Both the position numbers and the translations under genes were made by a program. Of a stretch of DNA of 64,000 nucleotides, positions 6,304 through 59,070 are shown one piece after another. The notes under the pieces were generated by a model. It was not told the origin of the DNA. It did not search any database and worked only from the letters and a program-made list of their open reading frames with translations. Source of the stretch: a plasmid. Every line of letters starts with the position of its first letter. Position 1 is the stretch's first letter. Location: sequence record NZ_CP029448.1; one strand, 5' to 3'.

Positions 6304-6464
6304 GGGGTCGTCTCAGAATTCGGAAAATAAAGCACGCTAAGGCGTAGTCACCCCGTGACTCCCCCGCGCCGATGCAGCGAGCTTCGTTCCGTCTTGCAGT
6401 GACGCAATCAGCGGGCAGGAAACGTTCCCTTTCCGCGCATGGCAGGCGCACACCAGTTCAGACA
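6304..6464 (+). mobile_element. Remnant of a Tn21-subgroup transposon: 38-bp IRmer plus the 3' end of merR, truncated by the Tn5403-like element
   Basis: GGGGTCGTCTCAGAATTCGGAAAATAAAGCACGCTAAG (6304-6341) followed by 123 bp. The whole segment is identical to 14288-14448. Confidence 0.85.
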
Positions 6465-6497
6465 GGGGTCGGTTCCGGCTGAGGGCGAAATGACACC

Positions 6498-7103
6498 CTA
6501 AGCGTTAGCTCTGTGTCGTTGCACGATGTCAGCGACGGTATTCTTGCTGATACCGAGCTCGCGTGCGATCCAGCGATAGCTGCGTCCCTCGGCCCTCATC
6601 GCAACCACCTTAGGCAAAAGTCGGTCTGATTTTGGTCGCACTCCGGCCTGACGACCAAGCCTCTTACCACGTGCCTTCGCAACAGCAAGGCCTGACTTGA
6701 CCCGCTCGCTGATGAGATCCCGCTCAAACTCCGCAATGCCGGAAAGAAACGTCGCCAGCATTCGTCCATACGGCGACGAAAGATCGAACGCCATTCCATT
6801 CATGGCTATCACGGAAACCTTCCAGTTCTCCAGTTCACGTAGCGTATTGAGCAGATCGAGCGTCGAGCGCCCCCACCGGGAAAGCTCAGTGACCAGGATT
6901 GCATCAATTTGTCTGGACTGGGCAAGCGCCAGGACTTTCTTTCGCTCGGCCCGGTCGAGTTTAGTTCCTGAACCTGTTTCCTTAAATATTCCCACCACGT
7001 CGTAGCCGGCACGGCCGGCGAAGGCTCGCAGATCAAATTCCTGGCGTTCACAAGACTGATCCGCTGTTGAAACCCGGCAGTAAATGGCGGCACGATGTCC
7101 CAA
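6498..7103 (-). CDS. tnpR: Serine recombinase/resolvase TnpR
   Basis: 201 aa, [16 protein letters not shown]... Has the catalytic Ser motif, a C-terminal HTH, and sits divergent from tnpA. Confidence 0.85.
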
Positions 7104-7197
7104 TTGAACCCTCCTGGATTTTTGTATCGGAACGCCCTGATTTATATGGGCTGGCTGTTGTCCAAAACAGACTATACTTCAAAAGGGACGAATTTGT
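7104..7197. promoter_or_regulatory. res / divergent promoter region between tnpR and tnpA
   Basis: 94-bp intergenic region between divergent tnpR and tnpA. Position only. Confidence 0.4.
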
Positions 7198-10095: not shown

Positions 10096-10202
10096 GGTGT
10101 CATTTCGCCCTCAGCCGGAACCGACCCCAACAACACCGGGTGTCGCCAGGGCCGTAGCCTGGGTGGTGACGCCTGGTGTGAAAAAATGGTAAGGGGAGAG
10201 CG

Positions 10203-11933: not shown

Positions 11934-12990
11934 GGCTTTGTTGAATAAATCGAACTTTTGCTGAGTTGAAGGATCAGATCACACATCTTCCCGACAACGC
12001 AGACCGTTCCGTGGCAAAGCAAAAGTTCAAAATCACCAACTGGCCCACCTACAATAAAGCCCTCATCAACCGTGGCTCCATAACTTTCTGGCTGGATGAT
12101 GAAGCTATTCAGGCCTGGTATGAGTCGGCAACGCCTTCATCACGAGGCAGACCTCAGCGCTATTCTGACCTTGCCATCACGACTGTGCTGGTCATTAAAC
12201 GCGTATTCAGGCTGACCCTGCGGGCTGCACAGGGTTTTATTGATTCCATTTTTACACTGATGAATGTTCCGTTGCGCTGCCCGGATTACACCAGTGTCAG
12301 CAAGCGCGCAAAGTCGGTTAATGTCAGTTTCAAAACGTTCACCCGGGGTGAAATCGCGCATCTGGTGATTGATTCCACCGGGCTGAAGGTCTTCGGTGAA
12401 GGCGAGTGGAAAGTCAAAAAGCATGGCCAGGAACGCCGCCGTATCTGGCGTAAGCTGCATCTGGCAGTTGACAGCAACACACATGAAATCATCTGTGCAG
12501 ACCTGTCGCTGAACAATGTGACGGACTCAGAAGCCTTCCCGGGTCTTATCCGGCAGACTCACAGAAAAATCAGGGCAGCATCGGCAGACGGCGCTTACGA
12601 CACCCGGCTCTGTCACGATGAACTGCGGCGTAAGAAAATCAGCGCGCTTATCCCTCCCCGAAAAGGTGCGGGTTACTGGCCCGGTGAATATGCAGACCGT
12701 AACCGTGCAGTGGCTAATCAGCGAATGACCGGGAGTAATGCGCGGTGGAAATGGACAACAGATTACAACCGTCGCTCGATAGCGGAAACGGCGATGTACC
12801 GGGTAAAACAGCTGTTCGGGGGTTCACTGACGCTGCGTGACTACGATGGTCAGGTTGCGGAGGCTATGGCCCTGGTACGAGCGCTGAACAAAATGACGAA
12901 AGCAGGTATGCCTGAAAGCGTGCGTATTGCCTGAAAACACAACCCGCTACGGGGGAGACTTACCCGAAATCTGATTTATTCAACAAAGCC
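11934..12990 (+). mobile_element. IS903-type (IS5 family) element, copy 1, 1057 bp, no TSD
   Basis: 18-bp IRs GGCTTTGTTGAATAAATC at both ends. Flanks ATTCACAAT / GTCTTCGTC do not match. Confidence 0.85.
11966..12934 (+). CDS. tnp: IS903 transposase
   Basis: 322 aa, MKDQITHLPDNADRSVAKQKFKITNWPTYNKALINRGS... Confidence 0.9.
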   Translation: MKDQITHLPDNADRSVAKQKFKITNWPTYNKALINRGSITFWLDDEAIQAWYESATPSSRGRPQRYSDLAITTVLVIKRVFRLTLRAAQGFIDSIFTLMNVPLRCPDYTSVSKRAKSVNVSFKTFTRGEIAHLVIDSTGLKVFGEGEWKVKKHGQERRRIWRKLHLAVDSNTHEIICADLSLNNVTDSEAFPGLIRQTHRKIRAASADGAYDTRLCHDELRRKKISALIPPRKGAGYWPGEYADRNRAVANQRMTGSNARWKWTTDYNRRSIAETAMYRVKQLFGGSLTLRDYDGQVAEAMALVRALNKMTKAGMPESVRIA

Positions 12991-15531: not shown

Positions 15532-17681
<2,150 letters not shown>

Positions 17682-17698
17682 GGAAAAGGAGGTGTTCA

Positions 17699-18064
17699 AT
17701 GAGCGCCTACACAGTGTCCCGGCTGGCCCTTGATGCCGGGGTGAGCGTGCATATCGTGCGCGACTACCTGCTGCGCGGATTGCTACGGCCGGTCGCGTAC
17801 ACCACGGGCGGCTACGGCTTGTTCGATGACACCGCGTTGCAACGGCTGCGCTTTGTACGGGCTGCCTTCGAAGCGGGTATCGGCCTGGACGCACTGGCGC
17901 GGCTGTGCCGGGCGCTGGATGCTGCGGACGGTGACGGTGCGTCTGCGCAGCTTGCCGTGTTGCGGCAACTCGTCGAGCGTCGGCGCGAGGCCCTGGCCAG
18001 CCTCGAAATGCAACTGGCCGCCATGCCAACCGAACCGGCACAGCACGCGGAGAGTCTGCCATGA
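17699..18064 (+). CDS. merD: MerD co-regulator
   Basis: [33 protein letters not shown]...; the ORF-track start at 17666 is an upstream extension overlapping the merA end. Confidence 0.8.
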
Positions 18065-18297
18065 ACAGCCCAGAGCACTTGCCGTCTGAGACGCACAAAC
18101 CGATCACCGGCTACTTGTGGGGCGCGCTGGCCGTGCTCACCTGTCCCTGCCATTTGCCGATTCTCGCCATTGTGCTAGCCGGCACGACGGCCGGCGCGTT
18201 CATCGGGGAGCACTGGGGTATTGCAGCCCTCACGCTGACCGGCTTGTTTGTCCTGTCTGTGACGCGGCTGCTGCGGGCCTTCAAGGGAAGATCATGA
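18061..18297 (+). CDS. merE: MerE
   Basis: [41 protein letters not shown]... Confidence 0.85.
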
Positions 18298-18362
18298 CCG
18301 CTTCCCAGCCAGCCGAGAGTGGGCAGCTTTGAGCTTCGCTACCAATCTGGAGGAGTACCACC

Positions 18363-18575
18363 ATGAACGCAAACGCCCCGAACACTGCCAGTTGCACCAC
18401 CTGCTGCGTATGCTGCAAAGAAATTCCGCTCGATGCCGCCTTCACCCCGGAAGGCGCGGAATACGTCGAACATTTCTGCGGGCTGGATTGCTATGAACGC
18501 TTCCAGGCACGCGCCAAGGCCGCGACAGAATCTGACATTGCGCCTGTCCCTGGCGGTTCGCAGCCGTCAGATTGA
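18363..18575 (+). CDS. Small Cys-rich ORF downstream of merE (urf2/orf-2-like position)
   Basis: 70 aa, [47 protein letters not shown]... with an RBS GGAGTACC. Confidence 0.4.
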
Positions 18576-18705
18576 GGCATACCCTAACTTGGCGTCAGAC
18601 CATCCGGCGCTAAATCGTCAGAATAGAGTTGCCTTCCGAATTGATTGACATACGCCGTCAAGGGTCATAGATTTCTTCCTGACACATTTCCCTCAGGAGG
18701 ATACC
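18576..18705. promoter_or_regulatory. res site region upstream of tnpR
   Basis: Intergenic region immediately 5' of the resolvase gene, in the position res occupies in Tn21/Tn501-type transposons. Confidence 0.45.
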
Positions 18706-19266
18706 TTGCACGGTCAGCGCATCGGTTACGTCCGCGTCAGCAGCTTCGACCAGAACCCAGAACGGCAGCTCGAACAGATCCAGGTGGATAAAGTGTTCAC
18801 CGACAAGGCGTCGGGCAAGGACACACGGCGGCCCGAACTGGAACGGCTGCTCGCCTTCGTGCGCGAAGGCGACACGGTCGTGGTGCACAGCATGGATCGT
18901 CTGGCGCGCAACCTCGACGACCTGCGCCGCCTGGTGCAGGGCCTCACCCAGCGCGGCGTACGCATCGAGTTCCTTAAGGAGCATTTGACCTTCACCGGCG
19001 AGGACTCGCCGATGGCGAACCTGATGCTGTCGGTAATGGGCGCGTTCGCCGAGTTCGAACGCGCCTTGATCCGCGAGCGGCAGCGCGAGGGCATCGCGCT
19101 CGCCAAGCAGCGCGGGGCCTACCGTGGCAGGAAGAAATCCCTGTCGTCTGAGCGTATTGCCGAACTGCGCCAACGTGTCGAGGCTGGCGAGCAAAAGACC
19201 AAGCTGGCTCGTGAATTCGGAATCAGTCGCGAAACCCTGTATCAATACTTGAGAACGGATCAGTAA
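18706..19266 (+). CDS. tnpR: Resolvase TnpR (Tn21/Tn501 type)
   Basis: [24 protein letters not shown]... 186 aa. Confidence 0.9.
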
Positions 19267-19268
19267 AT

Positions 19269-22235
19269 ATGCCACGTCGTTCAATCCTGTCCGCCGCCGA
19301 GCGCGAAAGCCTGCTGGCGTTGCCGGACACCAAGGATGAGTTGATCCGTCACTACACGTTCAGCGAAACCGACCTCTCCATCATCCGGCAGCGGCGCGGC
19401 CCGGCCAACCGGCTGGGCTTCGCCGTGCAGCTCTGTTACCTGCGCTTTCCTGGTGTCATCCTGGGCGTCGATGAGCCGCCGTTTCCGCCCTTGTTGAAAC
19501 TGGTCGCCGACCAGCTCAAGGTCAGCGTCGAAAGCTGGGACGAATACGGGCAGCGGGAGCAGACCCGGCGCGAGCACCTGGTCGAACTGCAAACGGTGTT
19601 CGGCTTCCAGCCCTTTACCATGGGCCACTACCGGCAGGCCGTCCAGTTGCTGACCGAGATGGCCTTGCAGACCGACAAGGGCATCGTGCTGGCCAGCACC
19701 TTGATCGAGCACCTGCGGCAGCAGTCGGTCATTCTGCCTGCCCTCAACGCCGTCGAGCGGGCGAGCGCCGAAGCAATCACCCGCGCCAACCGGCGCATCT
19801 ACGATGCCTTGGCCGAACCGCTGTCGGACGCGCATCGCCGCCGCCTCGACGATCTGCTCAAGCGTCGGGACAACGGCAAAACGACCTGGCTGGCCTGGCT
19901 GCGCCAATCGCCCGTCAAACCGAATTCGCGGCACATGCTGGAACACATCGAACGCCTCAAAGCGTGGCAGGCGCTCGACCTGCCTTCTGGCATCGAGCGG
20001 TCGGTGCACCAGAACCGCCTGCTCAAGATCGCCCGTGAGGGTGGCCAGATGACGCCCGCCGACCTGGCCAAGTTCGAGGCGCAGCGACGCTATGCCACCC
20101 TGGTGGCGCTTGCCATCGAGGGCATGGCCACCGTCACCGACGAAATCATCGACCTGCACGACCGCCTCCTGGGCAAGCTGTTCAACGCCGCCAAGAACAA
20201 GCATCAGCAGCAATTCCAGGCGTCCGGCAAGGCGATCAACGCCAAGGTGCGGCTGTTCGGCCGCATCGGCCAGGCGCTGATCGAGGCCAAGCAGGCGGGC
20301 CGCGATCCGTTCGCCGCCATCGAGGCCGTCATGTCCTGGGATGCCTTCGCCGAGAGCGTCACCGAAGCGCAGAAGCTTGCGCAGCCCGAGGACTTCGATT
20401 TCCTGCACCGCATCGGCGAAAGCTACGCCACGCTGCGCCGCTACGCGCCGGAATTCCTTGCCGTGCTCAAGCTGCGGGCCGCTCCCGCCGCGAAGGACGT
20501 GCTCGACGCCATCGAGGTGCTGCGCGGCATGAACAGCGACAACGCCCGCAAGGTGCCCGCCGACGCGCCGACCGAGTTCATCAAGCCGCGCTGGCAGAAG
20601 CTGGTCATGACCGACACCGGCATCGACCGGCGCTACTACGAACTGTGCGCGCTGTCGGAGATGAAGAACGCGTTGCGTTCCGGCGACATCTGGGTGCAGG
20701 GGTCGCGCCAGTTCAAGGACTTCGAGGACTACCTGGTGCCGCCCGCGAAATTCGCCAGCCTCAAGCAGGCCAGCGAATTGCCGCTGGCCGTGGCCACCGA
20801 CTGCAACCGGTACCTGAACGACCGGCTGACGCTGCTGGAAACACAGCTTGCCACCGTCAACCGTATGGCGACGGCCAACGAGCTGCCGGACGCCATCATC
20901 ACCGAGTCAGGCTTGAAGATCACGCCGCTCGACGCGGCGGTACCCGACACCGCCCAAGCGCTGATCGACCAGACGGCAATGATCCTGCCGCACGTCAAGA
21001 TCACCGAACTGCTGCTGGAGGTGGACGAATGGACGGGCTTCACTCGGCATTTCGCGCATCTGAAATCGGGCGACCCGGCCAAAGACAAGAACCTGTTGCT
21101 GACCACGATCCTCGCCGACGCGATCAACCTGGGCCTGACCAAGATGGCGGAGTCTTGCCCCGGCACGACCTACGCCAAGCTGGCTTGGCTGCAAGCCTGG
21201 CACATCCGCGACGAAACCTACGGGGCGGCGCTGGCCGATCTGGTCAACGCACAGTTCCGCCATCCCTTCGCCGAGCACTGGGGCGACGGCACCACCTCAT
21301 CGTCGGACGGCCAGAACTTCCGCACCGGCAGCAAGGCCGAGAGCACCGGCCACATCAACCCGAAATACGGGAGCAGCCCAGGGCGGACGTTCTACACCCA
21401 CATTTCTGACCAGTACGCGCCATTTCACACCAAGGTCGTGAACGTCGGCGTGCGCGATTCGACCTACGTGCTCGACGGCCTGCTGTACCACGAGTCCGAC
21501 TTGCGGATCGAGGAGCATTACACCGACACGGCGGGCTTCACCGATCACGTCTTCGCCCTGATGCACCTCCTGGGCTTCCGCTTCGCGCCGCGCATCCGCG
21601 ACCTGGGCGACACCAAGCTCTACATCCCGAAGGGCGACGCCGCCTATGACGCGCTGAAACCCATGATCGGCGGCACGCTCAACATCAAGCACGTCCGCGC
21701 CCATTGGGACGAAATCCTGCGGCTGGCCACCTCGATCAAGCAGGGCACGGTGACGGCCTCCCTGATGCTCCGAAAGCTCGGCAGCTACCCACGCCAGAAC
21801 GGCCTGGCCGTGGCGCTCCGCGAGCTGGGCCGCATCGAGCGCACGCTGTTCATCCTGGACTGGCTGCAAAGCGTGGAACTGCGCCGCCGCGTGCATGCCG
21901 GCCTGAACAAGGGCGAGGCGCGCAATGCGCTGGCCAGGGCAGTGTTTTTCAACCGCCTGGGTGAAATCCGCGACCGCAGTTTCGAGCAGCAGCGCTACCG
22001 GGCTAGCGGCCTCAATCTGGTAACGGCTGCCGTCGTGTTGTGGAACACGGTCTATCTGGAACGGGCTGCGCACGCGCTGCGTGGCAACGGCCATGCCGTT
22101 GATGACGCGCTGTTGCAGTACCTGTCGCCGCTCGGTTGGGAGCACATCAACCTCACCGGCGATTACCTCTGGCGCAGCAGCGCCAAGATCGGCGCGGGCA
22201 AGTTCAGGCCGCTACGACCGCTGCAACCGGCTTAG
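19269..22235 (+). CDS. tnpA: Transposase TnpA (Tn21/Tn501 type, 988 aa)
   Basis: [62 protein letters not shown]...; stop TAG lies within IRtnp (CTTAGC). Confidence 0.9.
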
Positions 22236-26571: not shown

Positions 26572-26835
26572 ATGAAGAAGCGTTTTTCCGACGAACAGAT
26601 CATCAGTATCCTCCGCGAGGCTGAAGCCGGGGTTTCTGCCCGTGAGCTCTGCCGTAAGCACGCCATTTCCGACGCCACCTTTTACACCTGGCGTAAGAAG
26701 TATGGCGGTATGGAGGTGCCCGAGGTTAAGCGCCTGAAGTCGCTTGAGGAAGAGAACGCCAGGCTCAAGAAGCTGCTTGCCGAAGCCATGCTGGATAAGG
26801 AGGCGCTTCAGGTGGCTCTGGGGCGAAAGTACTGA
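26572..26835 (+). CDS. IS3-family OrfA (HTH)
   Basis: 87 aa, [44 protein letters not shown]... Confidence 0.8.
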
Positions 26836-26858
26836 CGACAGACCAGAAGCGGGAAGCC

Positions 26859-27692
26859 GTGATGTTGATGTGTGATGCGACCGGTCTGTCGCAACGTCGT
26901 GCCTGCAGGCTTACAGGTTTGTCCCTGTCGACCTGCCGTTATGATGCTCAGCGTCCGGCTGCTGATGCACATTTATCAGGGCGTATTACTGAGCTGGCGC
27001 TTGAACGCAGACGTTTTGGTTATCGGCGTATCTGGCAGTTGCTGCGTAGGGAGGGCCTTCACGTCAATCACAAGCGGGTATACCGTATTTACCACCTTAA
27101 TGGACTGAGCGTAAAACGCAGACGACGCCGTAAAGGGCTGGCGACCGAACGGTTTCCGCTTCTTCGCCCGGATGCGCCGAACCTTACATGGTCGATGGAT
27201 TTCGTTATGGACGCACTGGCCAACGGTCGCAGGATCAAGTGCCTGACCTGTGTGGATGATTTCACGAAGGAGTGTCTGACGATCACCGCTGCTTTCGGTA
27301 TTTCAGGCGTTCAGGTCACGCGTATTCTGGACAGCATCGCGTTGTTTCGGGGCTATCCGGCGACAATAAGAACCGATCAGGGCCCGGAATTTACCTGCCG
27401 CGCGCTCGATCAATGGGCCTTTGAGCATGGTGTGGAACTACGGCTTATCCAGCCAGGTAAGCCAACGCAGAACGGATTTATTGAGAGTTTTAACGGACGC
27501 TTTCGCGATGAGTGTCTGAACGAACACTGGTTCAGCGATATCGTTCACGCCAGGAAAACCATTAACGACTGGAGGCAGGATTATAACGAGTGTCGTCCAC
27601 ATTCGGCACTGAATTATCTGACGCCATCAGAGTTTGCAGCACGGTGGCGAAATGGAAAATGTGAAGGTAAACAAACCGACATTACTAACTGA
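26859..27692 (+). CDS. IS3-family OrfB (DDE integrase core)
   Basis: 277 aa, ...[28 protein letters not shown]...TDQGPEF...[17 protein letters not shown]... Confidence 0.8.
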
Positions 27693-28653
27693 CGGTTGTA
27701 TCTAATCCTGGGGGCAGGTCAAAAGTGATCTGGCAGTATCACCGAACAGAGGCTGGATGACACATAATAGAATTATGTATGTCTTTGTTTCCAAGATGCA
27801 TTCTAATTTGTAAATGTAGTGATTTGCATCAAAGATGTTTTCTTTTTTATTGACCCAGAACAAGGTAAAAAGGTGGGAGCACAGACGGCAGGCCATGGCA
27901 CGAAATGTAAATTTAGCTGTCTGTTTTTTTGTACTCAACCAGCTGGGTATGTAATGAACGCTCACCAGTAGCATGTAGCCAACTTTTTTATATGTGGCGG
28001 GTCTTATTTCGCTGAAAAAGCCGGAAGGGATTACATGGCCTAGTTGGCCTGTTACAGAAATGAACACAGGGTAGTCCCAATGCGCACAGCACGTCTCGCT
28101 GCGGAAAACGTCTGAATTGCTGAGCAGAATTGTTCCCACCATCGCCTAAGATCCTGACCCGGGTTTGACGCTACTAACCGTAAGTTGCTGTGCAATGTGT
28201 TGTTCGACAGAACAGGCAGTCAGTAGGTGATAGTGGAAGTTTTTGGTGCAAAAGGCGGCAACATCGCAGCACAGACAGCAACCCGGGGCCGTGGAAAATA
28301 ATGCAACCAGATACCGTGATGCCTTGGAGAAACCTCGCCCTTCAGGCCGGGGAGGAAAAGAGGCGGTTTTCCGGCAAACATGGTTTTCCGAGTAGGCTGA
28401 CGTACCAGCACTGATTATGGTTGTGCTAAAGACCTGGAGAACTCTAATCCAAGGCTCTGTCCGGACCGAAATCATCCGGCACGATGCGTGTAAACGATAC
28501 CGCAGAAGTCTACTTTTCAAACGTACATTGTAGTAAGTTGAAAAAGAATATAAAAAAAATAAAAAATAGGATAACATCAGACGTGACATAGCTCAGATAT
28601 CACTCCTTGATACCAGAATTTTTTTCGTTAGAGTTTTCTAGAGGGAATAATTT

Positions 28654-30527
28654 ATGGGTAAAACATCTATTTCGGAAATCTTATCTACTTATCATCATTT
28701 GCAATTAGAAAACGCAAATGAAGCCGCTACAAGACTAAAAGTGATAGATCGGGTCTTAAAGGAAGTCTTGATGTGGACTGATAGTGATATCAAACCAGAA
28801 GAACATGTCACTGAGGATGGTTTGACAACCTATGCTGATTATATACTAAAAACAGCCAATATTGCGCTTGTTGTGGAAGCTAAAAAGGCAGGACCTAGCT
28901 TCACTGTCACGCCAGGAAAAAGGAAGGTAAAGCTTAGTAATAGTTTTTTACAGTGTGATCTTGGTGAAGCAATAATACAAGCCAGAGACTACGCAAGAAA
29001 ATTTGGTATAGATTATGCCGTCGCTACGAATGGAAATGTCTGGGCATGCTTTCCTGCCCAGAGGCATGATAATGTGAAATTTAATGATTCAATAGCGCTT
29101 GTGTTCTGGTCACTTGAAGATTGTCTACATGAGAATTATCAAGAATTCTATGATTTGCTTAGTCGTGAAAATGTTATATCAGGAAGTCTGGAAACAGCTC
29201 TCTTGGGTCGCGTCGAAAATCAAATCGAGTTTAGAAAGTTAAAGAATTTTTATTCTCAGCAAAATAGAACTCAGACTAATAACCCGATATATCATTTAAT
29301 TGCAGATGAGTTAAGATTGGCATTTTCTGATTCCATACTTTATTTAGATGAAGATTCCTTTGAAAAATGTTATGTTTCAACGCCAGAAACTATGCGATTC
29401 GACAGTAAAATTAGGATGAATATTGGTAGGCGTTCAAATGTTCTGAATGGTGAGGTATTAAAAGGGTTAAATGATAAAGATACACAAAGAATAATCGATA
29501 AGTTCCAAGTGAAAGGAAAGAAAAAGATACACATCAAGGACAGCAAACCTCTAGCAATCTTGCTACTCGGGACTGTGGGGGCAGGTAAAACAACCTTTCT
29601 TCATTACATGAGAAAGGTTAGAATAAAAGAGATTTTTTCAAATAAAGAAGATAAATTGACGCCACATTGGCTTCATATAGATTTCCTTGATAATCCATCA
29701 GAAAGCTCAATAGTAGATTTTATCTACAAATCAATCCTCGAATACATCAATAGGCATCCAATCTTAAGTAATCAGACGTTTGTATTTGATGCATTTAGAG
29801 AAGATATTGAAGCAATTAAGTCGGGGCCTCTTTTTCTATTGAGCGAGGAGCAAAAAAACTCTCGCATCTCCGATTTTTTATATGAGCAATATAAAAACAT
29901 CAGACCTTATGTTGATAAAATAATCAGTCACATTACAAAAACAACATCTTTTTTCCTTGTTATAGATAACGTTGATCAAATTGAGCTTGATGATATTCAG
30001 TCCCGGATATTTACAGAATCATTTTCAATATCGCGGGCACTTTCATTAAACCTTGTGCTCTCATTGAGGCAGTCTACTTTTATCAAACATAAAAATTCTC
30101 CGGCTATAGATGCTTTTGATTTTGAAATTATACAAATAGATCCACCAAGAATTAGCAGTGTAATAGCAAAAAGATTTGCTCTAGTAAAATATATGACCAG
30201 TAATAAAAGTGGTAATTTCATCGCAGAAAATGGTGCTAAAGTTGCCTTAGATGATATATCACAATTAGTCGATATTATCAGTGGGTCTGTACTGGGAAGT
30301 GAGATTGGGACACGTATTGAGGTACTTGCGACGGATGATGTGCGGTTAGCATTACGAATGACTCGTGAGTTCCTAGAAAGGGGTTATACGAGCCCAGGTA
30401 AGGCAGTACAAATCTTTAGAGAACAAGGAAGATATCTTCTTCCCCGACATGAGGCATTCAGAGCCATTTTATTGGGTACTGAATTGACATATAGCGAGTC
30501 AACATCGACTATTGCTAACCCATTTGA
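28654..30527 (+). pseudogene. N-terminal 624 codons of an 834-aa protein: HsdR_N/Mrr-type PD-(D/E)xK nuclease-like domain plus STAND/NB-ARC-like P-loop NTPase; split by IS903
   Basis: NEAATRLKVIDRVLKEVLMW...YADYILKTANIALVVEAKK...DYAVATNGNVWACF matches the HsdR N-terminal/Mrr catalytic-domain signature. Walker A LLLGTVGAGKTTFLHYM and Walker B SFFLVIDNVDQ (hhhhDxVD) match the NB-ARC/NACHT pattern. RBS GGAGGG upstream of the ATG. Confidence 0.6.
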
Positions 30528-31584
30528 GGCTTTGTTGAATAAATCAGATTTCGGGTAAGTCTCCCCCGTAGCGGGTTGTGTTTTCAGGCAATACGCACGC
30601 TTTCAGGCATACCTGCTTTCGTCATTTTGTTCAGCGCTCGTACCAGGGCCATAGCCTCCGCAACCTGACCATCGTAGTCACGCAGCGTCAGTGAACCCCC
30701 GAACAGCTGTTTTACCCGGTACATCGCCGTTTCCGCTATCGAGCGACGGTTGTAATCTGTTGTCCATTTCCACCGCGCATTACTCCCGGTCATTCGCTGA
30801 TTAGCCACTGCACGGTTACGGTCTGCATATTCACCGGGCCAGTAACCCGCACCTTTTCGGGGAGGGATAAGCGCGCTGATTTTCTTACGCCGCAGTTCAT
30901 CGTGACAGAGCCGGGTGTCGTAAGCGCCGTCTGCCGATGCTGCCCTGATTTTTCTGTGAGTCTGCCGGATAAGACCCGGGAAGGCTTCTGAGTCCGTCAC
31001 ATTGTTCAGCGACAGGTCTGCACAGATGATTTCATGTGTGTTGCTGTCAACTGCCAGATGCAGCTTACGCCAGATACGGCGGCGTTCCTGGCCATGCTTT
31101 TTGACTTTCCACTCGCCTTCACCGAAGACCTTCAGCCCGGTGGAATCAATCACCAGATGCGCGATTTCACCCCGGGTGAACGTTTTGAAACTGACATTAA
31201 CCGACTTTGCGCGCTTGCTGACACTGGTGTAATCCGGGCAGCGCAACGGAACATTCATCAGTGTAAAAATGGAATCAATAAAACCCTGTGCAGCCCGCAG
31301 GGTCAGCCTGAATACGCGTTTAATGACCAGCACAGTCGTGATGGCAAGGTCAGAATAGCGCTGAGGTCTGCCTCGTGATGAAGGCGTTGCCGACTCATAC
31401 CAGGCCTGAATAGCTTCATCATCCAGCCAGAAAGTTATGGAGCCACGGTTGATGAGGGCTTTATTGTAGGTGGGCCAGTTGGTGATTTTGAACTTTTGCT
31501 TTGCCACGGAACGGTCTGCGTTGTCGGGAAGATGTGTGATCTGATCCTTCAACTCAGCAAAAGTTCGATTTATTCAACAAAGCC
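30528..31584 (-). mobile_element. IS903-type element, copy 2 (1057 bp) with perfect 9-bp TSD CCCATTTGA
   Basis: IRs GGCTTTGTTGAATAAATC at both ends. The 9-bp duplication sits at 30519-30527 and 31585-31593. Confidence 0.9.
30584..31552 (-). CDS. tnp: IS903 transposase (identical to copy 1)
   Basis: 322 aa, identical to the 11966..12934 product. Confidence 0.9.
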   Translation of the reverse strand: MKDQITHLPDNADRSVAKQKFKITNWPTYNKALINRGSITFWLDDEAIQAWYESATPSSRGRPQRYSDLAITTVLVIKRVFRLTLRAAQGFIDSIFTLMNVPLRCPDYTSVSKRAKSVNVSFKTFTRGEIAHLVIDSTGLKVFGEGEWKVKKHGQERRRIWRKLHLAVDSNTHEIICADLSLNNVTDSEAFPGLIRQTHRKIRAASADGAYDTRLCHDELRRKKISALIPPRKGAGYWPGEYADRNRAVANQRMTGSNARWKWTTDYNRRSIAETAMYRVKQLFGGSLTLRDYDGQVAEAMALVRALNKMTKAGMPESVRIA

Positions 31585-31593
31585 CCCATTTGA

Positions 31594-32224
31594 TTCGAAT
31601 TTAGCAGTGACTCAAATGCAATTATTAAGACTGTACGTTCTTAATGTTATAGTTTCGTACGCTAGCGATCCTGCATTCCGACAAATTGATGGTTCGGTAA
31701 TAACTGAAAAATTAAGAACGATTGGTGTAGGCGACTCTTTTACACATCGCGTACTTGTTGATTTATGCAATAAAAGATTTTTATTTACTGTAAATCACGG
31801 TGAGCCTACAGCTTCATCAAGTTTCATACCATCTCGGTTGGGTGGTTATATTGCAAAAGAACTTATTAGTAATTTCACATTCATAGAATGTATGCTTTAT
31901 GATACATATATAGCTGATGCTAAGACATGGGGGAAATTGAGAGATCTGAGCGGGAAAATTGAGTCTGAAAGAGATGTAATAAAAAGGATCACGATGCGTG
32001 TAAGCCGAGCGAAAAGTTTTTATTATCAAATGGAAAAGCTTATTTCTCCGCTTTGTTCTGAGGCTATTATTAGAGGATTGCCTTCACAATGGTGTTCTAA
32101 TCCTCTTCGGGAGCGTTTACCCGAGTTAAGAAAAGAGTTAGGAAGGGTCCTTCATTCTGCGAAAAAGACATATCAACCAAAACAGGATGATACGTCTAAG
32201 TATTTCCTTGATGAATCGGTATAA
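31594..32224 (+). pseudogene. C-terminal 209 codons of the IS903-split nuclease-NTPase protein (helical sensor-like region)
   Basis: ...PFDSNLAVTQMQLLRLYVLNVIVSYASDPAFRQ...; in-frame with 28654..30527 once the IS and one TSD copy are removed. Confidence 0.6.
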
Positions 32225-32226
32225 AA

Positions 32227-32252
32227 AATGGGGCTGCCATGCCCCATTTATA
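32227..32252 (+). terminator. Rho-independent terminator
   Basis: AAAAAATGGGGCTGCCATGCCCCATTTAT hairpin (GGGGC/GCCCC) in AT-rich context, directly after the stop codon. Confidence 0.6.
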
Positions 32253-32417
32253 ATTCACCACGGTGCAAAGATTTTATTTTTCATGCCAAAAAGTGCCTTC
32301 ATAATATTACAATTGCAATTATTGTTGCAACTAATTAGAACTGTAAAATAACAAATTCATTAGAAATGGCCGCTGAGTTATTATCTTCTGGAGCGGCCTC
32401 TTTGGCATAACTTTATT

Positions 32418-33205
32418 ATGCTAACCAATTCTGGTATTGGCACAGATACCGGTGATGTTCAGCTCGTTCATGGCACGGCCGAACTGAGTCTGGCCATCTC
32501 CGCCGGTGGCCTGCTTGTTGTTGATCCTGAAGACGCTGGCCTTGTCGCTGTAGAACGCCACAGGCTTACCGTAACGTTCCAGATAACCGCGGGTGGCTTC
32601 AAAATAGGTGAAAGTGGATTCAGAACTGACGTACAGAAGCTGCATCAGCCGGCTCGTCGCATCATCAACGTAAACGAGCAGTGTGCACGCCGGACCACGA
32701 TCCTCGAACCAGCGATGCTCACAGCCATCAATCTGGATGAGTTCTCCGCGTGGGCGTGGCTGATGTACACGCGGCGGCCGCAGCTTGCGGGGGGATCCAT
32801 AAACCGGCCTGTGTCATCAGCTTGCGTACCGTCTCTTTGGCCAGATACAGCCCATGAACCTCGGCGAGCTTCTCACAGGCTAAAGTGGGACCAAAATCAG
32901 CGTAGCGTTCGCGGATAATACGTAGTGCTCGTTCAGCGAGGCCCGGCATGAGTTGCCGGTTGCCAGGCTGGCCACGACGACGGTTAACAAGTGAAAGCGG
33001 CCCATGTTCACGATAGCGCTCCAGCAACCGTCGGCAGTGTCTGTCAGATATCTCAAGCCGGTTTGCTGCAAGACGTGTGGTAAGACGGCGGTCGATAACA
33101 TCCTGAAGGATCCTGAGTCGGTTTACATCGTTCATTGAGAAAAACTCCGTTCCGTATGCCGTCATGAGTCTCATCCTTTGAAAGCAGTGATCGCTGTGGT
33201 GAGAC
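32418..33205 (-). pseudogene. Frameshifted, 3'-truncated transposase gene of the same IS481-like (rve integrase-core) family as the intact gene at 37466-38812
   Basis: Two frames: MTAYGTEFFSMNDVNRLRILQDVIDRRL...ADFGPTLACEKLAEVHGLYL... and ...YLERYGKPVAFYSDKASVFRINNKQATGGDGQTQFGRAMNELNITGICA. Together they align to aa ~36-295 of the 37466 product. Homology stops abruptly at the AT-rich island boundary (32418). Confidence 0.65.
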
Positions 33206-33242
33206 TGTAGGGGTCGGTTCCGGCTGAGGGCGAAATGACACC

Positions 33243-36140
33243 CTAAGCTTTCGGTTCCTTGGGCCAAAGATATTCGCCAGTCAGTAGAATGTGCGCCCAG
33301 CCCAATGGGGATATGTGGGGAAGAAATTCAGGGGGAACATCCAACCCTTCGTTCCGCCGCTCCGTGACGGCATGACCAAGATGGACGGTATTCCAGTAAA
33401 TGATCACCGCAGTCAATAAATTGAGCCCAGCGATTCGGTAGTGCTGCCCCTCTGTCGTGCGATCGCGAATTTCCCCCTGCCTCCCGATACGGAGCGCATT
33501 TTTGAGCGCATGGTGGGCCTCTCCCTTGTTAAGACCGATCTGAGCACGCCGCTGCATGTCCGTATCCAGGATCCACTCAATAATGAAAAGGGTCCGTTCA
33601 ATACGACCAACTTCACGAAGCGCAACTGCAAGGTTGTTTTGTCGTGGGTAAGAAGCGAGCTTGCGCAGGAGTTGGCTGGGCCTGATTTTGCCAGCGGTCA
33701 TCGTCGCGGCACAACGGAAAATATCAGGCCAGTTCGCAACGATAAGATCCTCCCGGGCTTTTCCACCTACCAACTTGCGTAACTCCCTGGGGGTCGTATC
33801 GGGATTAAATACGTACAACCGCTTCGATGGCAGATCCCTGATTCGCAGAACGAGATTGTAGCCGAGCAGGCTACTGGCTCCGAACAAATGGTCGGTGAAT
33901 CCTGCTGTATCGGCATACTGTTCGCGAACATGGCGACCGACCTCGTTCATCAGTAGTCCATCGAGAATATACGGTGCCTCGCTCACGGTCGCCGGGATCG
34001 ACTGACAAGCGAATGGCGCGAACTGGTCGCTTACGTGAGTATACGCTTTGAGGCCGGGAACAGAACCATATTTGGCATTGACCATGTTCATGGCTTCGCC
34101 ATGCCGCGCTGTCGGGAAAAACTGACCATCGCTCGATGCTGACGTGCCCATCCCCCAGACGCGTGACATCGGCAGTTTACCCTGCGCGGCCACCACAATT
34201 GCCAATGCCTGGTTCATGGCTTCGCTTTCAACATGCCAGCGGGCAAGGCGTGAGAGCTGCCAGTAATCATGCGTGTTTGTAGCTTCCGCCATCTTACGCA
34301 GGCCCAGATTGAGCCCTTCAGCGAGCAGGACGTTGAGCAGACCGATCCGGTCGCGACATGGAGCCCCGGTTCTCAGATGGGTAAACGCATCTGTGAAACC
34401 AAGGGCTGCATCAACTTCAAGCAGCATGTCGGTAATCCGAACGGACGGCATTCGGCGATACAGATCCAGTATGAGTGCCTCGGCACCATCCGGCACGTCT
34501 GCTGTCAACCTGTCGATCCGCAACGTTCCATCTTCTATGCTACCGTGCGGAATAGTGCCGTTACGGGCAGCCCGGGCCAGCCGCTTAAGAGCGATCGTGA
34601 GTCGCGCCTTTCTGTCTGCCAGCCAATCCTGTGGGTTGGAAGGCACGGCCAGTTTTGCATTTTCCTGCGCCGCGATCATCGGCACCAGTACCTGCTTGAG
34701 GTCACCATAGCGGCGCGAATGAGCGAGCCAGACATCTCCGGAACGAAAAGCATCCCGGAGGTGAAAGAGTACCGCCACTTCCCAAAGACGGGTATCTCCT
34801 TTTTCCTGAGCTCGTAAATGACGGTTCCATTTGGAGCTGGGCCGCAGGAAACGCCTTTCTGGCGATGCAACACCTTTCATCTCTCCGATCGACAAAGCTG
34901 CTGCTACCAATGGTCCGGCGACCGGCGCGGCTTCGAGCTTCAGACAGCGCAACATGCGGGGCGCATAACGACGAAAGCGATGGTATCCCTGCCCGACATA
35001 TGCAAGAGGCTCATCGGCTAGCGTGTTGCTGAGTTGAGTCCCTGTCGCTACCAGTTGAGCGAGCCGGTCCCATGCAACCGAACTGGCGACAGCCATCTCC
35101 AGCGGGGTTCCGTCACTGCGGGCCTCAAGCAACGAAGCTCCCAGCGCGGTGAAGGTACGGATCGTATCCGCGAGTGTGGCTTTAGAGCCGGAAATTGTTT
35201 CGTCATGCTGGCGCTTCGCTTCCCGCCAGGTTTTTCCTACGATCCTGTCATGGGTTTCGACTATGGCATCAGCAATCGCCGCTTCCCACTCCACAACACA
35301 GACGGCAAGGATCGCCCAGCGGCGGTCCGAAGTGATGTCACGCAAACCGTCGGTGAAGTAGCGTTCACCCTGCCGACGCAGCCGGGCAATGCGATGGGCA
35401 GGTATGCTGGCCAAAGCACTATGATTGATATTCAGGGTACGCAGAAATTCGAGCCTGTCGAGCAAACGGTTAGCAGCAGCCGAGTTGTTACCAACCTCGA
35501 AGTTGCGAAGCCAGATGAAACGACTGATATTGCCGGCGAGCATTTCACTCAGAAGTTTGTCCAGGTGATCGCGAACATCCGCTGTTAAATTTTCCACAAT
35601 CCGCGTTTCAATCCGCCGCTCAGCGGCGACCAGAGCATCCGCGCACAAGCGCTCGATTGTCGATACTGCGGGCAGAATGGTGGAAGTTTCCCGACACCGC
35701 ACAATAAAACGATGAGCAAGATCCTCGTTTGATCTGGCATCTTCGGCCTGGCCGAAAGTCCACTCCCGCAGATCACGGGCACCACGGCCCGTGAAGGTCT
35801 TGTAGCCGTAAATTTCGCGCAGCGTGTCCATGTGCTGCTGACGGGTTTGGCGCCGTGTGGCATAAGTGAGAAGCGCATCAGCCGGAACTCCAAGCTGAGC
35901 ACCGACGAAGGAAAGGATTTCACGCGGGATCATCTCACCAGGAGCCAGTGCACGGCCCGGATATCGTAAGGCACAAAGTTGCAGGGCAAAGCCAATCCTG
36001 TTTTCCGGTCTGCGGCGCTGCCTAATGTTTTCCAGGTCATCATCGCCCAGCGTGTAGAACTTCAGTAGCGACAGTTCGTCCGTGGGCAGATCGAACAGCG
36101 CTGCTCGCTGCCGTTCGGTGAAAATATGGCGTCGTGACAT
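33243..36140 (-). CDS. tnpA: Tn3-family transposase TnpA (identical to copy A)
   Basis: 965 aa, identical translation to the 7198..10095 product. Confidence 0.9.
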   Translation of the reverse strand: MSRRHIFTERQRAALFDLPTDELSLLKFYTLGDDDLENIRQRRRPENRIGFALQLCALRYPGRALAPGEMIPREILSFVGAQLGVPADALLTYATRRQTRQQHMDTLREIYGYKTFTGRGARDLREWTFGQAEDARSNEDLAHRFIVRCRETSTILPAVSTIERLCADALVAAERRIETRIVENLTADVRDHLDKLLSEMLAGNISRFIWLRNFEVGNNSAAANRLLDRLEFLRTLNINHSALASIPAHRIARLRRQGERYFTDGLRDITSDRRWAILAVCVVEWEAAIADAIVETHDRIVGKTWREAKRQHDETISGSKATLADTIRTFTALGASLLEARSDGTPLEMAVASSVAWDRLAQLVATGTQLSNTLADEPLAYVGQGYHRFRRYAPRMLRCLKLEAAPVAGPLVAAALSIGEMKGVASPERRFLRPSSKWNRHLRAQEKGDTRLWEVAVLFHLRDAFRSGDVWLAHSRRYGDLKQVLVPMIAAQENAKLAVPSNPQDWLADRKARLTIALKRLARAARNGTIPHGSIEDGTLRIDRLTADVPDGAEALILDLYRRMPSVRITDMLLEVDAALGFTDAFTHLRTGAPCRDRIGLLNVLLAEGLNLGLRKMAEATNTHDYWQLSRLARWHVESEAMNQALAIVVAAQGKLPMSRVWGMGTSASSDGQFFPTARHGEAMNMVNAKYGSVPGLKAYTHVSDQFAPFACQSIPATVSEAPYILDGLLMNEVGRHVREQYADTAGFTDHLFGASSLLGYNLVLRIRDLPSKRLYVFNPDTTPRELRKLVGGKAREDLIVANWPDIFRCAATMTAGKIRPSQLLRKLASYPRQNNLAVALREVGRIERTLFIIEWILDTDMQRRAQIGLNKGEAHHALKNALRIGRQGEIRDRTTEGQHYRIAGLNLLTAVIIYWNTVHLGHAVTERRNEGLDVPPEFLPHISPLGWAHILLTGEYLWPKEPKA

Positions 36141-36234
36141 ACAAATTCGTCCCTTTTGAAGTATAGTCTGTTTTGGACAACAGCCAGCCCATATAAATCA
36201 GGGCGTTCCGATACAAAAATCCAGGAGGGTTCAA

Positions 36235-36840
36235 TTGGGACATCGTGCCGCCATTTACTGCCGGGTTTCAACAGCGGATCAGTCTTGTGAACGCCAGGAA
36301 TTTGATCTGCGAGCCTTCGCCGGCCGTGCCGGCTACGACGTGGTGGGAATATTTAAGGAAACAGGTTCAGGAACTAAACTCGACCGGGCCGAGCGAAAGA
36401 AAGTCCTGGCGCTTGCCCAGTCCAGACAAATTGATGCAATCCTGGTCACTGAGCTTTCCCGGTGGGGGCGCTCGACGCTCGATCTGCTCAATACGCTACG
36501 TGAACTGGAGAACTGGAAGGTTTCCGTGATAGCCATGAATGGAATGGCGTTCGATCTTTCGTCGCCGTATGGACGAATGCTGGCGACGTTTCTTTCCGGC
36601 ATTGCGGAGTTTGAGCGGGATCTCATCAGCGAGCGGGTCAAGTCAGGCCTTGCTGTTGCGAAGGCACGTGGTAAGAGGCTTGGTCGTCAGGCCGGAGTGC
36701 GACCAAAATCAGACCGACTTTTGCCTAAGGTGGTTGCGATGAGGGCCGAGGGACGCAGCTATCGCTGGATCGCACGCGAGCTCGGTATCAGCAAGAATAC
36801 CGTCGCTGACATCGTGCAACGACACAGAGCTAACGCTTAG
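36235..36840 (+). CDS. tnpR: Resolvase TnpR (identical to copy A)
   Basis: 201 aa, identical translation to the 6498..7103 product. Confidence 0.85.
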   Translation: MGHRAAIYCRVSTADQSCERQEFDLRAFAGRAGYDVVGIFKETGSGTKLDRAERKKVLALAQSRQIDAILVTELSRWGRSTLDLLNTLRELENWKVSVIAMNGMAFDLSSPYGRMLATFLSGIAEFERDLISERVKSGLAVAKARGKRLGRQAGVRPKSDRLLPKVVAMRAEGRSYRWIARELGISKNTVADIVQRHRANA

Positions 36841-37021
36841 GGTGTCATTTCGCCCTCAGCCGGAACCGACCCCCTGTAGCGCGGACATGTCTATTTGGTC
36901 AGAGACGGACATCTCAAATTAGCTACTACAACGATGTCTAGCCAATGTTGAAATGTCGTGCTGAAAACAAAGCTGACCTGACGTCAGTGGAGAGTCTGGA
37001 CAATGCCTTTTTAAGGTTGAG

Positions 37022-57600: not shown

Positions 57601-57767
57601 TGGCCGGGATAGCTGGTTTTAATAATGACCTGCACATCTGACAGGTCAGGCAAGGCATCGACCGGCGTGTTAATAATCGTCCATGTACCCCAGATGCTGA
57701 GAAACAGGGCCCCCATCATGACCAGGAAACGGTTGGCGACAGAGCGCCGGATAATCCATTCAATCAT
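54621..57767 (-). CDS. silA: SilA RND efflux pump (CusA-like)
   Basis: 1048 aa, 12-TM RND architecture. Confidence 0.9.
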
Positions 57768-57777
57768 CGTCGTCTCC

Positions 57778-59070
57778 TCAGTGCCCTGAATGCATATTTA
57801 CAGGCTGGTCAGACATTGCTGGCATACTGCTTTCTGTTTTTTCAGGATGGCGCATACGTTCCAGCGCGCCCGTAATATTGGCTTCGGAGTCAATGAGGAA
57901 CAGACCACTGACCACCACGGTATCGCCTTCATTCAGGCCGGAGCCGATGCCGGACTGTTGTTGTGATTCATGCAGAACGTGGATCTGTTTCGGCACAAAC
58001 TTGCCTTCATCATCAACAGTAATCACGCGCTGTTCTTTGCCGGTATCGATAACGGCCTGGCTTGGTATCAGCAGCATCTCCTGGCTCTTGGTATTGAGTT
58101 TCAGATAGGCATTCATGCCCGGCTTGAGAAACTCATCCTTATTAGAAACCTGGAGACGGACCTGAAGCGTACGGGTTGTCTGATCCACGCTGGGAAGAAT
58201 GTTCCATTTTTCGACATGGAATGTTTTATCCGGATAAGCCGGTACCGAAATTTCAAACTGCGACGTATCTTTCAGCAGATAGGCGATAGATTCCGGCACT
58301 GCAGCGCTGATCCAGACCGGGTCCATCCCCTGAATCTGAGCCACCACCTTATCTTTCGAAATATTCATGCCGGTGCGCAGGTCAAATGCAGTAATGACAC
58401 CATCAATAGGTGCTTTAATGGTAAAACGGGTCTGGATTGTGCGGGTTGAACGCAGTCTTTGAATATCCTCTTCCGGCATACCAGCCAGACGAAGTCGCTC
58501 CAGAACCCCTTTTATCTGGGTTGGCGTACCGCCTGTACCGGATAGCAGCAGGAACTCACTTTGTGCCTCAACCCATTCAGGAATGGTGATATCGATAAGC
58601 GGAGTGCCTTTCTTCACATGATCGCCAGTAGTCAGGGGATACACTTTTTCGACGAAACCGTCAGAGCGCGCCTGCACAATGACAAACTGATACTCGTTGT
58701 AACTGACATTAGCCGGGATTGTCTGAGAATAATTCAGCATTCCTCGCGTGACATTTTGCGTTTTTAATCCCAGATTCTGAACCTGGGTTGGATCGATACG
58801 GATCCCGCCATTGCTTTTATCGCCACTTTCATCAGCATATTTTGGCACAAGGTCCATATCCATAAAGGGAGATTTTCCGGGTTTATCAAATTTGGTATCC
58901 GGTTTCATCGGGTCATACCAGAAAAGTACCTTTTTCTCCGGTGCCTTTTGTTCTGTTTGTACTGTTTTTTGTGATGAGTTTACATACTGCCAGGCAGTAA
59001 CCGATATCAGCCCTCCTGCTATGAGGCTGCTGATAATTATTGCAGCATATTTTATCTTTAAAGAAGCCAT
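57778..59070 (-). CDS. silB: SilB membrane fusion protein (CusB-like)
   Basis: 430 aa. Confidence 0.85.

Follow-up and report, generated by a model that had tools for sequence, protein, structure and literature searches.

We analyzed 64,000 nucleotides of plasmid DNA (sequence record NZ_CP029448.1; this whole stretch is referred to below as the window) with a focus on a gene at 28654-32224 that is split by the insertion sequence (IS) IS903B. The locus is very probably an IS903B-inactivated copy of a single-gene anti-phage defense system of the DS-14 family. Rejoined, the gene encodes an 834-aa protein in which a predicted nuclease is followed by an AAA+ ATPase and a winged helix. An earlier note on this DNA had proposed an anti-phage role, and that proposal holds, given that a full-length homologue experimentally protects against phages. 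The same note had regarded the system as undescribed and unnamed. This part has to be given up, as the family has already been validated as DS-14 (WP_040091717.1).

Interruption of the gene by IS903B

Among the open reading frames (ORFs) of the window, the one at 28654-30558 (634 aa) enters the insertion sequence, and a second closes at 32224. The features of the interrupted gene are the following.

28654-30527, plus strand: 5' part of the split gene, codons 1-624 plus 2 nt; the frame reads on into the IS and ends at 30558
30519-30527: left copy of the target-site duplication, CCCATTTGA, perfect 9 bp
30528-31584, minus strand: IS903B, 1057 bp, with 18-bp terminal inverted repeats GGCTTTGTTGAATAAATC, splitting one ORF
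30584-31552, minus strand: IS903B transposase ORF, 322 aa
31585-31593: right copy of the target-site duplication, CCCATTTGA, perfect 9 bp
31594-32224, plus strand: 3' part of the split gene, comprising the third base of codon 625, residues 626-834, and the stop

The inserted element has the length of 1057 bp, the 18-bp terminal inverted repeats, the 9-bp target duplication, and the single transposase of IS903B, a member of the IS5 family, and it is 99.9-100% identical to the element as annotated in plasmid records. Joining 28654-30527 to 31594-32224 yields 2505 nt in frame, encoding 834 aa with one terminal stop. The earlier note had proposed this join, and the 2505-nt reconstruction is correct; the in-frame 3' part, however, begins at 31595, with codon 625 spanning the junction. 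That removal of the IS rejoins the two parts into an 834-aa protein is borne out by an intact Klebsiella protein (P0121, "MULTISPECIES: hypothetical protein [Klebsiella]", 203 contigs), to which the reconstruction is 100% identical.

The uninterrupted site is found in seven Klebsiella plasmids (H1-H7); they are 100% identical to 27722-33210 once the IS and one copy of the duplication are taken out. The sequence CCCATTTGA is single-copy in all seven, and their gene is annotated as WP_047062017.1, a hypothetical protein of 2505 nt. One example of the intact allele is found in NZ_CP055120.1, at 55651-58155. Because this empty site exists, a true insertion is demonstrated, beyond what could be deduced from the duplication. 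The terminal inverted repeats, the two CCCATTTGA copies, and the empty site thus confirm the view of a single gene split by IS903 with a perfect 9-bp duplication, and the seven plasmids supply the uninterrupted homologues that the earlier note had proposed to look for in other genomes. A 624-aa "partial" protein from Serratia marcescens (P0126, 7 contigs) corresponds exactly to residues 1-624 and stops at the IS junction; the same interrupted allele therefore exists elsewhere, circulating in Serratia marcescens. A junction search found this IS junction in no PLSDB plasmid, and the sole matches are Serratia marcescens contig-end fragments. Because the IS takes residues 626-834, which hold the winged helix and the tail, out of frame, the window copy is most likely inactivated and non-functional.

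Relationship to DS-14

DS-14 was found by a sequence-string search of the supplement to DefensePredictor (DeWeirdt, Mahoney and Laub, Science 2026, PMC13092281; preprint, bioRxiv Jan 2025, 10.1101/2025.01.08.631726), where it is an 816-aa E. coli protein, WP_040091717.1. A homologue in our set, P0086, aligns with the window protein over 820 aa at 47% identity (E=0), and its identity to the stretch of DS-14 given in the table of that paper (399 aa) is 99.7% (PMC13092281). In Table S6, where its working id is RMOR, DS-14 is a single-gene construct marked "defensive TRUE" and "Remote defense homolog", and Table S8 lists it as replicated (PMC13092281). In the one part of Table S7 that we draw on, DS-14 cloned alone affords log10 protection of 4.7 (Bas50), 3.7 (Candy), and 1.15 (RB69) (PMC13092281). 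The authors' HHpred analysis matches the AAA+ ATPase of DS-14 to ORC1 (7MCA_A, residues 270-569, probability 0.99) and gives bNACHT09 as the nearest defense protein (probability 99, 54% of the query; PMC13092281). DefensePredictor log-odds are 14.5-14.7 for two family members, and a Pectobacterium member of the same cluster (log-odds 14.5) is listed as a "putative novel defense gene" (PMC13092281).

The window protein shares with DS-14 full-length homology, the length class (816 vs 834 aa), the domain order, with a PD-(D/E)xK nuclease and an ORC-like AAA+ domain in one polypeptide, and the organization as a single gene with a putative promoter of its own. The lambdoid-prophage slot of DS-14 is also used by the closest E. 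coli relative of the window gene. In contrast to DS-14, the window protein belongs to another subfamily, with about half of the residues shared, and the window copy lies on plasmid-type DNA and is disrupted by IS903B. Judged by sequence, the window protein is a divergent member of a known, validated family. By extrapolation from E. coli DS-14, its subfamily would likewise act in anti-phage defense.

Domain architecture of the 834-aa protein

The domain assignments draw on an AlphaFold2 model of the 834-aa protein, built on 65 homologues (mean predicted local distance difference test score, pLDDT, 84.5; predicted template-modeling score, pTM, 0.81), and on an alignment (A2) of 58 representatives with 21-42% identity to the window protein. 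The predicted domains and motifs are listed here.

28714-29073, plus strand: PD-(D/E)xK nuclease core of HsdR_N/Mrr type, residues 21-140; catalytic D62, E75, and K77
29530-30144, plus strand: AAA+ ATPase base, residues 293-497
29569-29595, plus strand: Walker A, GTVGAGKTT, in the ATPase base
Residues 346-431, about 85 aa: variable helical insert between strand 2 and Walker B
29950-29979, plus strand: Walker B, FFLVIDNVDQ, in the ATPase base
30145-30489, plus strand: AAA+ lid (helical domain), residues 498-612; R564 in DVRLALRMTRE
31625-31834, plus strand: winged helix, residues 636-705, PadR/MarR-like
31835-32179, plus strand: helical tail, residues 706-820; about 130 aa lie beyond the winged helix

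The assignment of the N-terminus as a putative HsdR_N/Mrr-type PD-(D/E)xK nuclease is well supported, because the invariant D62, E75, and K77, the core in the model, and the profile matches among relatives agree. Twelve N-terminal residues are invariant across the 58 sequences, namely, E23, R27, W41, E49, D62, Y63, E75, A76, K77, Q109, N126, and G127. The D62...E75-x-K77 arrangement constitutes the PD-(D/E)xK motif and sits on an alpha-beta-beta-beta-alpha-beta core in the AlphaFold2 model. Profile scans were informative on the 58 distant relatives rather than on the 834-aa protein directly. Against the latter, Pfam HSDR_N_2 matches residues 35-137 at E=0.004, which is below threshold. Among the relatives, HSDR_N matches 7/58, HSDR_N_2 6/58, and PDDEXK_9 1/58, and the nuclease end of a type IIG restriction endonuclease-methyltransferase model matches one at E=6e-7. 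Sequence-profile searches of the PDB with A1, the alignment of the closer family, and with A2 returned P-loop noise (G-alpha, IF2, dNK) and a weak HsdR match (3h1t, E=0.01). DS-14 itself is named among the PD-(D/E)XK proteins that superpose on the catalytic core of EcoRI (preprint 10.1101/2025.01.08.631726). The N-terminal HsdR_N/Mrr nuclease recognized in the earlier note therefore stands, with the D62/E75/K77 triad invariant down to 21% identity and the PD-(D/E)xK core order seen at the N-terminus of the structural model. The motifs named in that note, NEAATRLKVIDRVLKEVLMW, YADYILK, VVEAKK, ATNGNVW, GTVGAGKTT, and FFLVIDNVD, are all present.

A variable linker of about 90 aa (residues 201-292) separates the nuclease from the ATPase. 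Within the ATPase, G306, G309, G311, K312, D438, N439, D441, R472, and R564 are invariant in the 58 sequences. The central P-loop ATPase with Walker A and Walker B motifs is thereby confirmed, its Walker residues being conserved in every relative aligned. In a Foldseek search of the PDB with the full model, the top match is Cdc6/Orc1 (E=5.8e-7), ahead of RADAR RdrA and Apaf-1; further structural matches of the ATPase are DNA-bound TnsC, BREX BrxC, NLRP3, ZAR1, and CED-4. R472, at the end of strand 4, presumably resembles the sensor-1 arginine of STANDs, and R564, which lies in DVRLAL (family consensus G-N/D-x-R-x-A-L), is in what we take to be the classical AAA+ sensor-2 motif, at the position where STANDs carry GxP. 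On the model, the ATPase is predicted to be an AAA+ domain on the border between Orc1/Cdc6 and STANDs, structurally nearer to the initiators.

Membership in the STAND class is ambiguous. The order of a NOD-like core, with a P-loop domain carrying Walker A and B, a helical domain, and a winged helix, is present, as in STANDs. Profile scores of the 834-aa protein are all sub-threshold (NACHT 0.0099, nSTAND5 0.021, orc1/cdc6 0.049), and among the 58 distant relatives, AAA_16 (43/58), nSTAND5 (21/58), and NACHT (14/58) match at E<=0.001. The structure is not closer to STANDs, however, and the sensor-2 arginine is not replaced by GxP. The modeled structure and this arginine favor a classical AAA+ assignment. 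A NACHT/NB-ARC fold, which the earlier note had expected, is thus matched in part: Apaf-1 is among the Foldseek matches, but Cdc6/Orc1 ranks first, and R564 is of the sensor-2 type. The KAP profile matches 9/58 relatives and several close homologues; the insert at residues 346-431 is charged rather than hydrophobic.

The last ~370 aa had been described as helical with no recognizable motif. This region instead comprises the AAA+ lid, the PadR/MarR-like winged helix, and the helical tail. A separate model of residues 626-834 has a pLDDT of 91.8. In the closer family (A1), R686, L707, G708, G709, E723, D728, W737, R760, and S813 are invariant, and because these residues are fixed, the C-terminal part severed by the IS is under selection. 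No TPR, LRR, or WD40 sensor was found after the lid, where the protein has only the 70-aa winged helix and the ~130 aa of helices.

Family extent and conservation

The family consists of proteins of 800-870 aa from Proteobacteria and beyond. An exhaustive profile search retrieved 2058 cluster representatives (50% identity) at E<=0.001, 590 of them at E<=1e-30. Among the best 150 relatives, the full-length ones run from the nuclease to near the C-terminus and the remainder are shorter fragments; the same nuclease N-terminus is kept throughout this set, with no effector swapping. The best-conserved regions are the cores of the nuclease and the ATPase, together with the lid; conservation is lowest in the linker (201-292), the insert (346-431), the winged helix, and the tail.

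PADLOC scans of the 834-aa protein gave only P-loop noise from AriA and mREase_II, and no Avs, bNACHT, or NLR model matches the protein or the 58 relatives at E<=0.001. The PADLOC part of the DefenseFinder/PADLOC check proposed earlier therefore yields no Avs or bNACHT assignment, in line with the earlier statement that no named system was recognized. PADLOC-DB (2023) holds no model for the DS-14 family, and the family was therefore not named in the earlier note. Literature searches by the accessions WP_047062017 and WP_001349602 returned nothing. Membership in the MADS system was considered and rejected: mad8 matches 16/58 relatives only in the P-loop region of the ATPase, at E values of 1e-3 to 1e-5.

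Comparison with known defense systems

Avs4 is a single defense protein in which an Mrr-like nuclease is fused to a STAND NTPase, and bNACHT25 likewise resembles the window protein in being one defense protein with an N-terminal effector of restriction-endonuclease fold followed by a P-loop switch ATPase. Both differ from it in having a true NACHT/STAND module and large C-terminal sensors, whereas in the window protein an Orc1/Cdc6-like AAA+ domain bearing a sensor-2 arginine is followed by no more than a winged helix and ~130 aa. The sensor of Avs proteins is typically 400 aa or more, large, and C-terminal (TPR-like) (PMC13581612). The Avs/bNACHT architecture attributed to the protein in the earlier note does not apply, given only the 70-aa winged helix and ~130 aa past the lid and no PADLOC match to Avs or bNACHT.

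Archaeal Orc1/Cdc6 initiators (1fnn, 2qby) share the sensor-2-like G/D-x-R-x-A-L motif. Their identity to the window protein is 12-14%, and the latter adds the nuclease, the ~90-aa linker, the ~85-aa insert, and the helical tail. HsdR and the Mrr-type Type IV enzymes have the same kind of PD-(D/E)xK nuclease, with D...ExK and QxxxY motifs. Unlike HsdR, the window protein lacks a superfamily 2 helicase motor, its NTPase being of the AAA+ type and not a translocase, and no hsdM/hsdS, methyltransferase, or specificity genes are adjacent in the contexts examined. Assignment as a Type I R subunit was rejected on these grounds: the nuclease domain alone is in common, the motor is AAA+, and hsdM/hsdS partners are absent. 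BREX BrxC and RADAR RdrA differ in belonging to multi-gene systems and in having no fused nuclease, and neither has a sequence-level match to the window protein.

Proposed mechanism and alternative explanations

The analysis establishes the conservation of the catalytic and ATPase residues, the fixed architecture, the location on mobile elements, and a homologue that provides defense as a gene acting alone. The kind of trigger, oligomerization, the DNA target, and the mode of action, abortive or direct, are inferred. The HsdR_N/Mrr-type nuclease would be the effector, and the ATPase-winged-helix module would be a nucleotide-dependent switch that holds the nuclease off. A phage-specific cue may be read by the variable surfaces of the helical insert, the winged helix, and the tail, which would lead to ATP-dependent assembly into dimers or oligomers, possibly on DNA. 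Assembly would unite the nuclease domains so that DNA is cut, and cutting would stop the phage either directly or by death of the infected cell.

Several points weigh against reading the locus as a dead DS-14-family defense gene of this kind. DS-14 is absent from the main-text discussion of the Science version (PMC13092281). The activity and phage range of the window subfamily, which is 47% identical to DS-14, are extrapolated from that protein. The 834-aa protein falls below every curated threshold in Pfam, NCBIfam, and PADLOC. It has no large sensor domain to read a cue, and the fold of the winged helix does not settle the trigger because winged helices bind either DNA or proteins. Finally, the truncated 634-aa ORF retains the nuclease, the ATPase base, and the lid, and it may have residual or altered activity.

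The nature of the trigger divides the alternatives. The fold neighbors (Orc1/Cdc6, TnsC, BrxC, and PadR/MarR) and the lack of a repeat sensor lean toward DNA, whereas the narrow phage range of DS-14, the STAND-type profile matches, and the link to bNACHT09 lean toward a specific protein. It is possible, though short of what we would expect, that the protein is a bona fide STAND/NLR-like receptor, a short relative of Avs or bNACHT, in which the C-terminal module binds a conserved phage protein and the resulting oligomer causes abortive infection. The effector, NOD, and C-terminal module do follow one another in STAND order, R472 presumably corresponds to the STAND sensor-1 arginine, and the Pfam matches of the relatives (AAA_16 43/58, nSTAND5 21/58, NACHT 14/58), the authors' HHpred link of DS-14 to bNACHT09 (probability 99, 54% of the query), and the structural matches to Apaf-1, NLRP3, ZAR1, and CED-4 are consistent with such a receptor. 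Short NACHT proteins with small, variable C-terminal domains, the bNACHT01 clade, are proven in defense, variability in the window family peaks in the C-terminal region and the helical insert, and the narrow range of DS-14 in the Table S7 part would fit a specific trigger. This view is opposed by the invariant arginine, which we take to be of the sensor-2 type, at the position of the STAND GxP, by the want of a TPR, LRR, or WD40 sensor with only ~130 aa past the winged helix, by the PADLOC Avs/bNACHT models that match neither the protein nor the 58 relatives at E<=0.001, and by the single nuclease N-terminus, with no effector swapping, in the best 150 relatives.

Somewhat unlikely, in our estimate, is a DNA-directed restriction enzyme, whether modification-dependent (Type IV-like) or of another kind, in which the ATPase and winged helix would bind phage DNA and the nuclease would cut it. 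Such an enzyme would recognize modified bases, an origin-like site, or a replication structure; no phage protein would be sensed, and cell death would be unnecessary. The nearest structural relatives are compatible with this, since they are the DNA-binding initiators Orc1/Cdc6, DNA-bound TnsC, and BREX BrxC, as are the C-terminal fold of PadR/MarR DNA-binding regulators, a nuclease of the type found in Type I/IV restriction enzymes, the absence of a conserved methyltransferase or other partner beside the gene in the contexts examined, and the absence of a repeat-type protein sensor. T-even phages carry modified cytosines, and DS-14 also acts on RB69, according to the same part of Table S7. In those rows, however, protection against RB69 is weak (1.15 log), and the strongest effect (4.7 log) is on Bas50, presumably, from the BASEL numbering, a phage of the Vequintavirinae group. 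According to the BASEL paper, phages of this group are exceptionally vulnerable to ordinary restriction-modification and so are not obviously modified. The DS-14 efficiency-of-plating rows in this one part of Table S7 hold 3 phages, the panel comprising 24, which would be odd for a general DNA-directed enzyme, and the profiles of the relatives also match STAND families (AAA_16, nSTAND5, NACHT).

A selfish or maintenance function of the mobile elements themselves, as an ORC-like replication or partition factor or as an exclusion nuclease acting against competing plasmids, is highly improbable. The family is always on mobile elements, adjoins replication genes in lambdoid prophages, and has an Orc1/Cdc6-like ATPase fold, observations that favor such a function. 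Yet a homologue cloned alone protects against lytic phages, the gene occurs in a small minority of similar prophages and plasmids, and its disruption by IS903B, IS1, and frameshifts is tolerated. In Aeromonas, the gene stands alone in the chromosome between type VI secretion system (T6SS) and thrABC genes, and initiators do not characteristically carry a conserved catalytic nuclease.

A further idea, which we advance as an unlikely one, is that the DS-14 family comprises "origin-recognition-like" immune nucleases. The Orc1/Cdc6-type AAA+/winged-helix module would have been re-used to sense phage DNA or a replication intermediate, not a protein, and ATP-dependent assembly on phage DNA would fire the fused HsdR-type nuclease. 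If true, this principle of sensing would belong neither to restriction-modification nor to the NLR-like recognition of proteins, and the family, with about 2000 clusters at 50% identity, would form a new mechanistic class of which the window holds a dead copy.

The gene cassette and its genomic contexts

The gene has a GC content of 36%, vs 52.5% for the window, so the AT-rich setting described earlier is real. The signals around it are as follows.

28538-28567 and 28607-28634, plus strand: promoter-like hexamer pairs, consensus scan matches only
28640-28645, plus strand: ribosome-binding site AGAGGG, 8 nt before the ATG at 28654, read from the sequence
32226-32256, plus strand: probable intrinsic terminator, a 9-bp-stem hairpin and U-rich stretch, 2 nt past the stop

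The terminator hairpin (32226-32249) is followed by AUUUAUAAUU and has a folding free energy of -16.7 kcal/mol (z -2.4). The consensus terminator scan did not call the hairpin after the split gene. The gene's own ribosome-binding site and terminator, as claimed in the earlier note, are thus matched by AGAGGG and by the stable hairpin, although the terminator lacks a consensus call. Only the gene, with ~110-155 bp upstream and 25-200 bp downstream, is common to the window, an IncFII plasmid, and an E. coli lambdoid prophage; nucleotide identity of the window cassette is 95.7% to the IncFII plasmid and 86-88% to the lambdoid prophage. Because only the gene and these short flanks are shared, the sequence comparison presents the gene as a self-contained, horizontally mobile, AT-rich cassette. 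No neighbor is conserved across 8 contexts of family members, which include the following.

E. coli lambdoid prophages: in the slot that separates replication genes (DUF977) from hokD/RusA/Q
Two variants in the lambdoid slot: L013/L014, 12001-14505; L002, 10001-12451
Serratia P2-like prophage: flanked by the portal gene and gpA
P. aeruginosa Pf filamentous prophage: at the prophage end
Vibrio: adjoining PM2-type capsid genes
Cupriavidus: on an element carrying genes of conjugative-element type (ParB, a UvrD helicase, and a PRTRC cassette)
IncFII plasmid: adjoining an integrase, a CAP12/PCTIR TIR-domain gene, and TacAT/YafO/HigB toxin genes
Aeromonas chromosome: a solitary gene flanked by the T6SS and thrABC operons, with no surrounding element

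The same lambdoid slot is used by the DS-14-type variant and by WP_001349602.1, the closest E. coli relative, which are mutually 47% identical. Two variants this divergent in one slot are the signature of a defense-gene swapping hotspot. P2 carries old/tin between its portal gene and gpA, the position of the family member in the Serratia prophage. The distribution is rare and patchy: each variant is in 8/5426 complete E. coli genomes (8 + 8). Broken E. coli copies, with an IS1 insertion in H36 (NZ_CP010171.1) and split coding sequences in H30 and H41, suggest repeated loss of function.

Some of these contexts contain further genes. In the Serratia P2-like prophage, the CI repressor and the integrase flank another gene, distinct from the family member, for a KAP-family NTPase of 443 aa (L015, 18827-20158). 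In the Pf prophages (L004-L007; about 8875-9946 in L004), two small co-oriented genes of 97 and 231 aa lie upstream of the family member across a 55-bp gap and were not seen in the other contexts. On the IncFII plasmid, the 368-aa CAP12/PCTIR TIR-domain gene is convergent with the intact gene and lies ~200 bp downstream of it (L010, 12721-13827); this neighbor is not in the window.

Surroundings in the window

A second IS903B copy, at 11934-12990, is 100% identical to the copy in the gene and inverted relative to it, and the two bracket 17.5 kb. Its flanks, ATTCACAAT and GTCTTCGTC, are not a duplication, and for this reason it must have undergone a rearrangement or deletion. A composite transposon, with two IS903B copies moving the gene, was rejected for the copy in the gene, on the grounds of the perfect duplication that flanks it and of the exact empty site in other plasmids. 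The window also contains a 3.67-kb inverted repeat (6462-10132 and 33206-36877, 99.95% identity), each arm of which holds an identical 965-aa Tn3-family transposase ORF (7198-10095, plus strand; 33243-36140, minus strand). These arms and the IS903B pair form nested inverted repeats around the split gene. Directly upstream of the gene, an IS3-family orfA/orfB pair (87 + 277 aa) occupies 26572-27692, and the 100% Klebsiella match begins just after it, at 27722. The region 16000-22000 has a GC content of 60-66% against the window mean of 52.5%, contains ORFs of 988 aa (19269-22235) and 561 aa (15996-17681), and is probably another acquired module.

Implications

The "hypothetical protein" WP_047062017.1 and its relatives can now be labeled as DS-14-family defense genes, a label that covers IncF plasmids of Klebsiella and other Enterobacterales, prophages of E. 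coli, Serratia, Pseudomonas, and Vibrio, and Aeromonas. The proper annotation of the window copy is an IS903B-disrupted pseudogene. The family is large, has one fixed architecture, and resides in classic prophage defense hotspots. Its combination of a nuclease, an Orc1/Cdc6-like AAA+ domain, and a winged helix, with no repeat sensor, narrows the question to DNA versus protein sensing, and the fold analysis names residues to mutate. For plasmid ecology, the locus is another defense gene that was carried by, and then lost from, resistance plasmids through IS activity.

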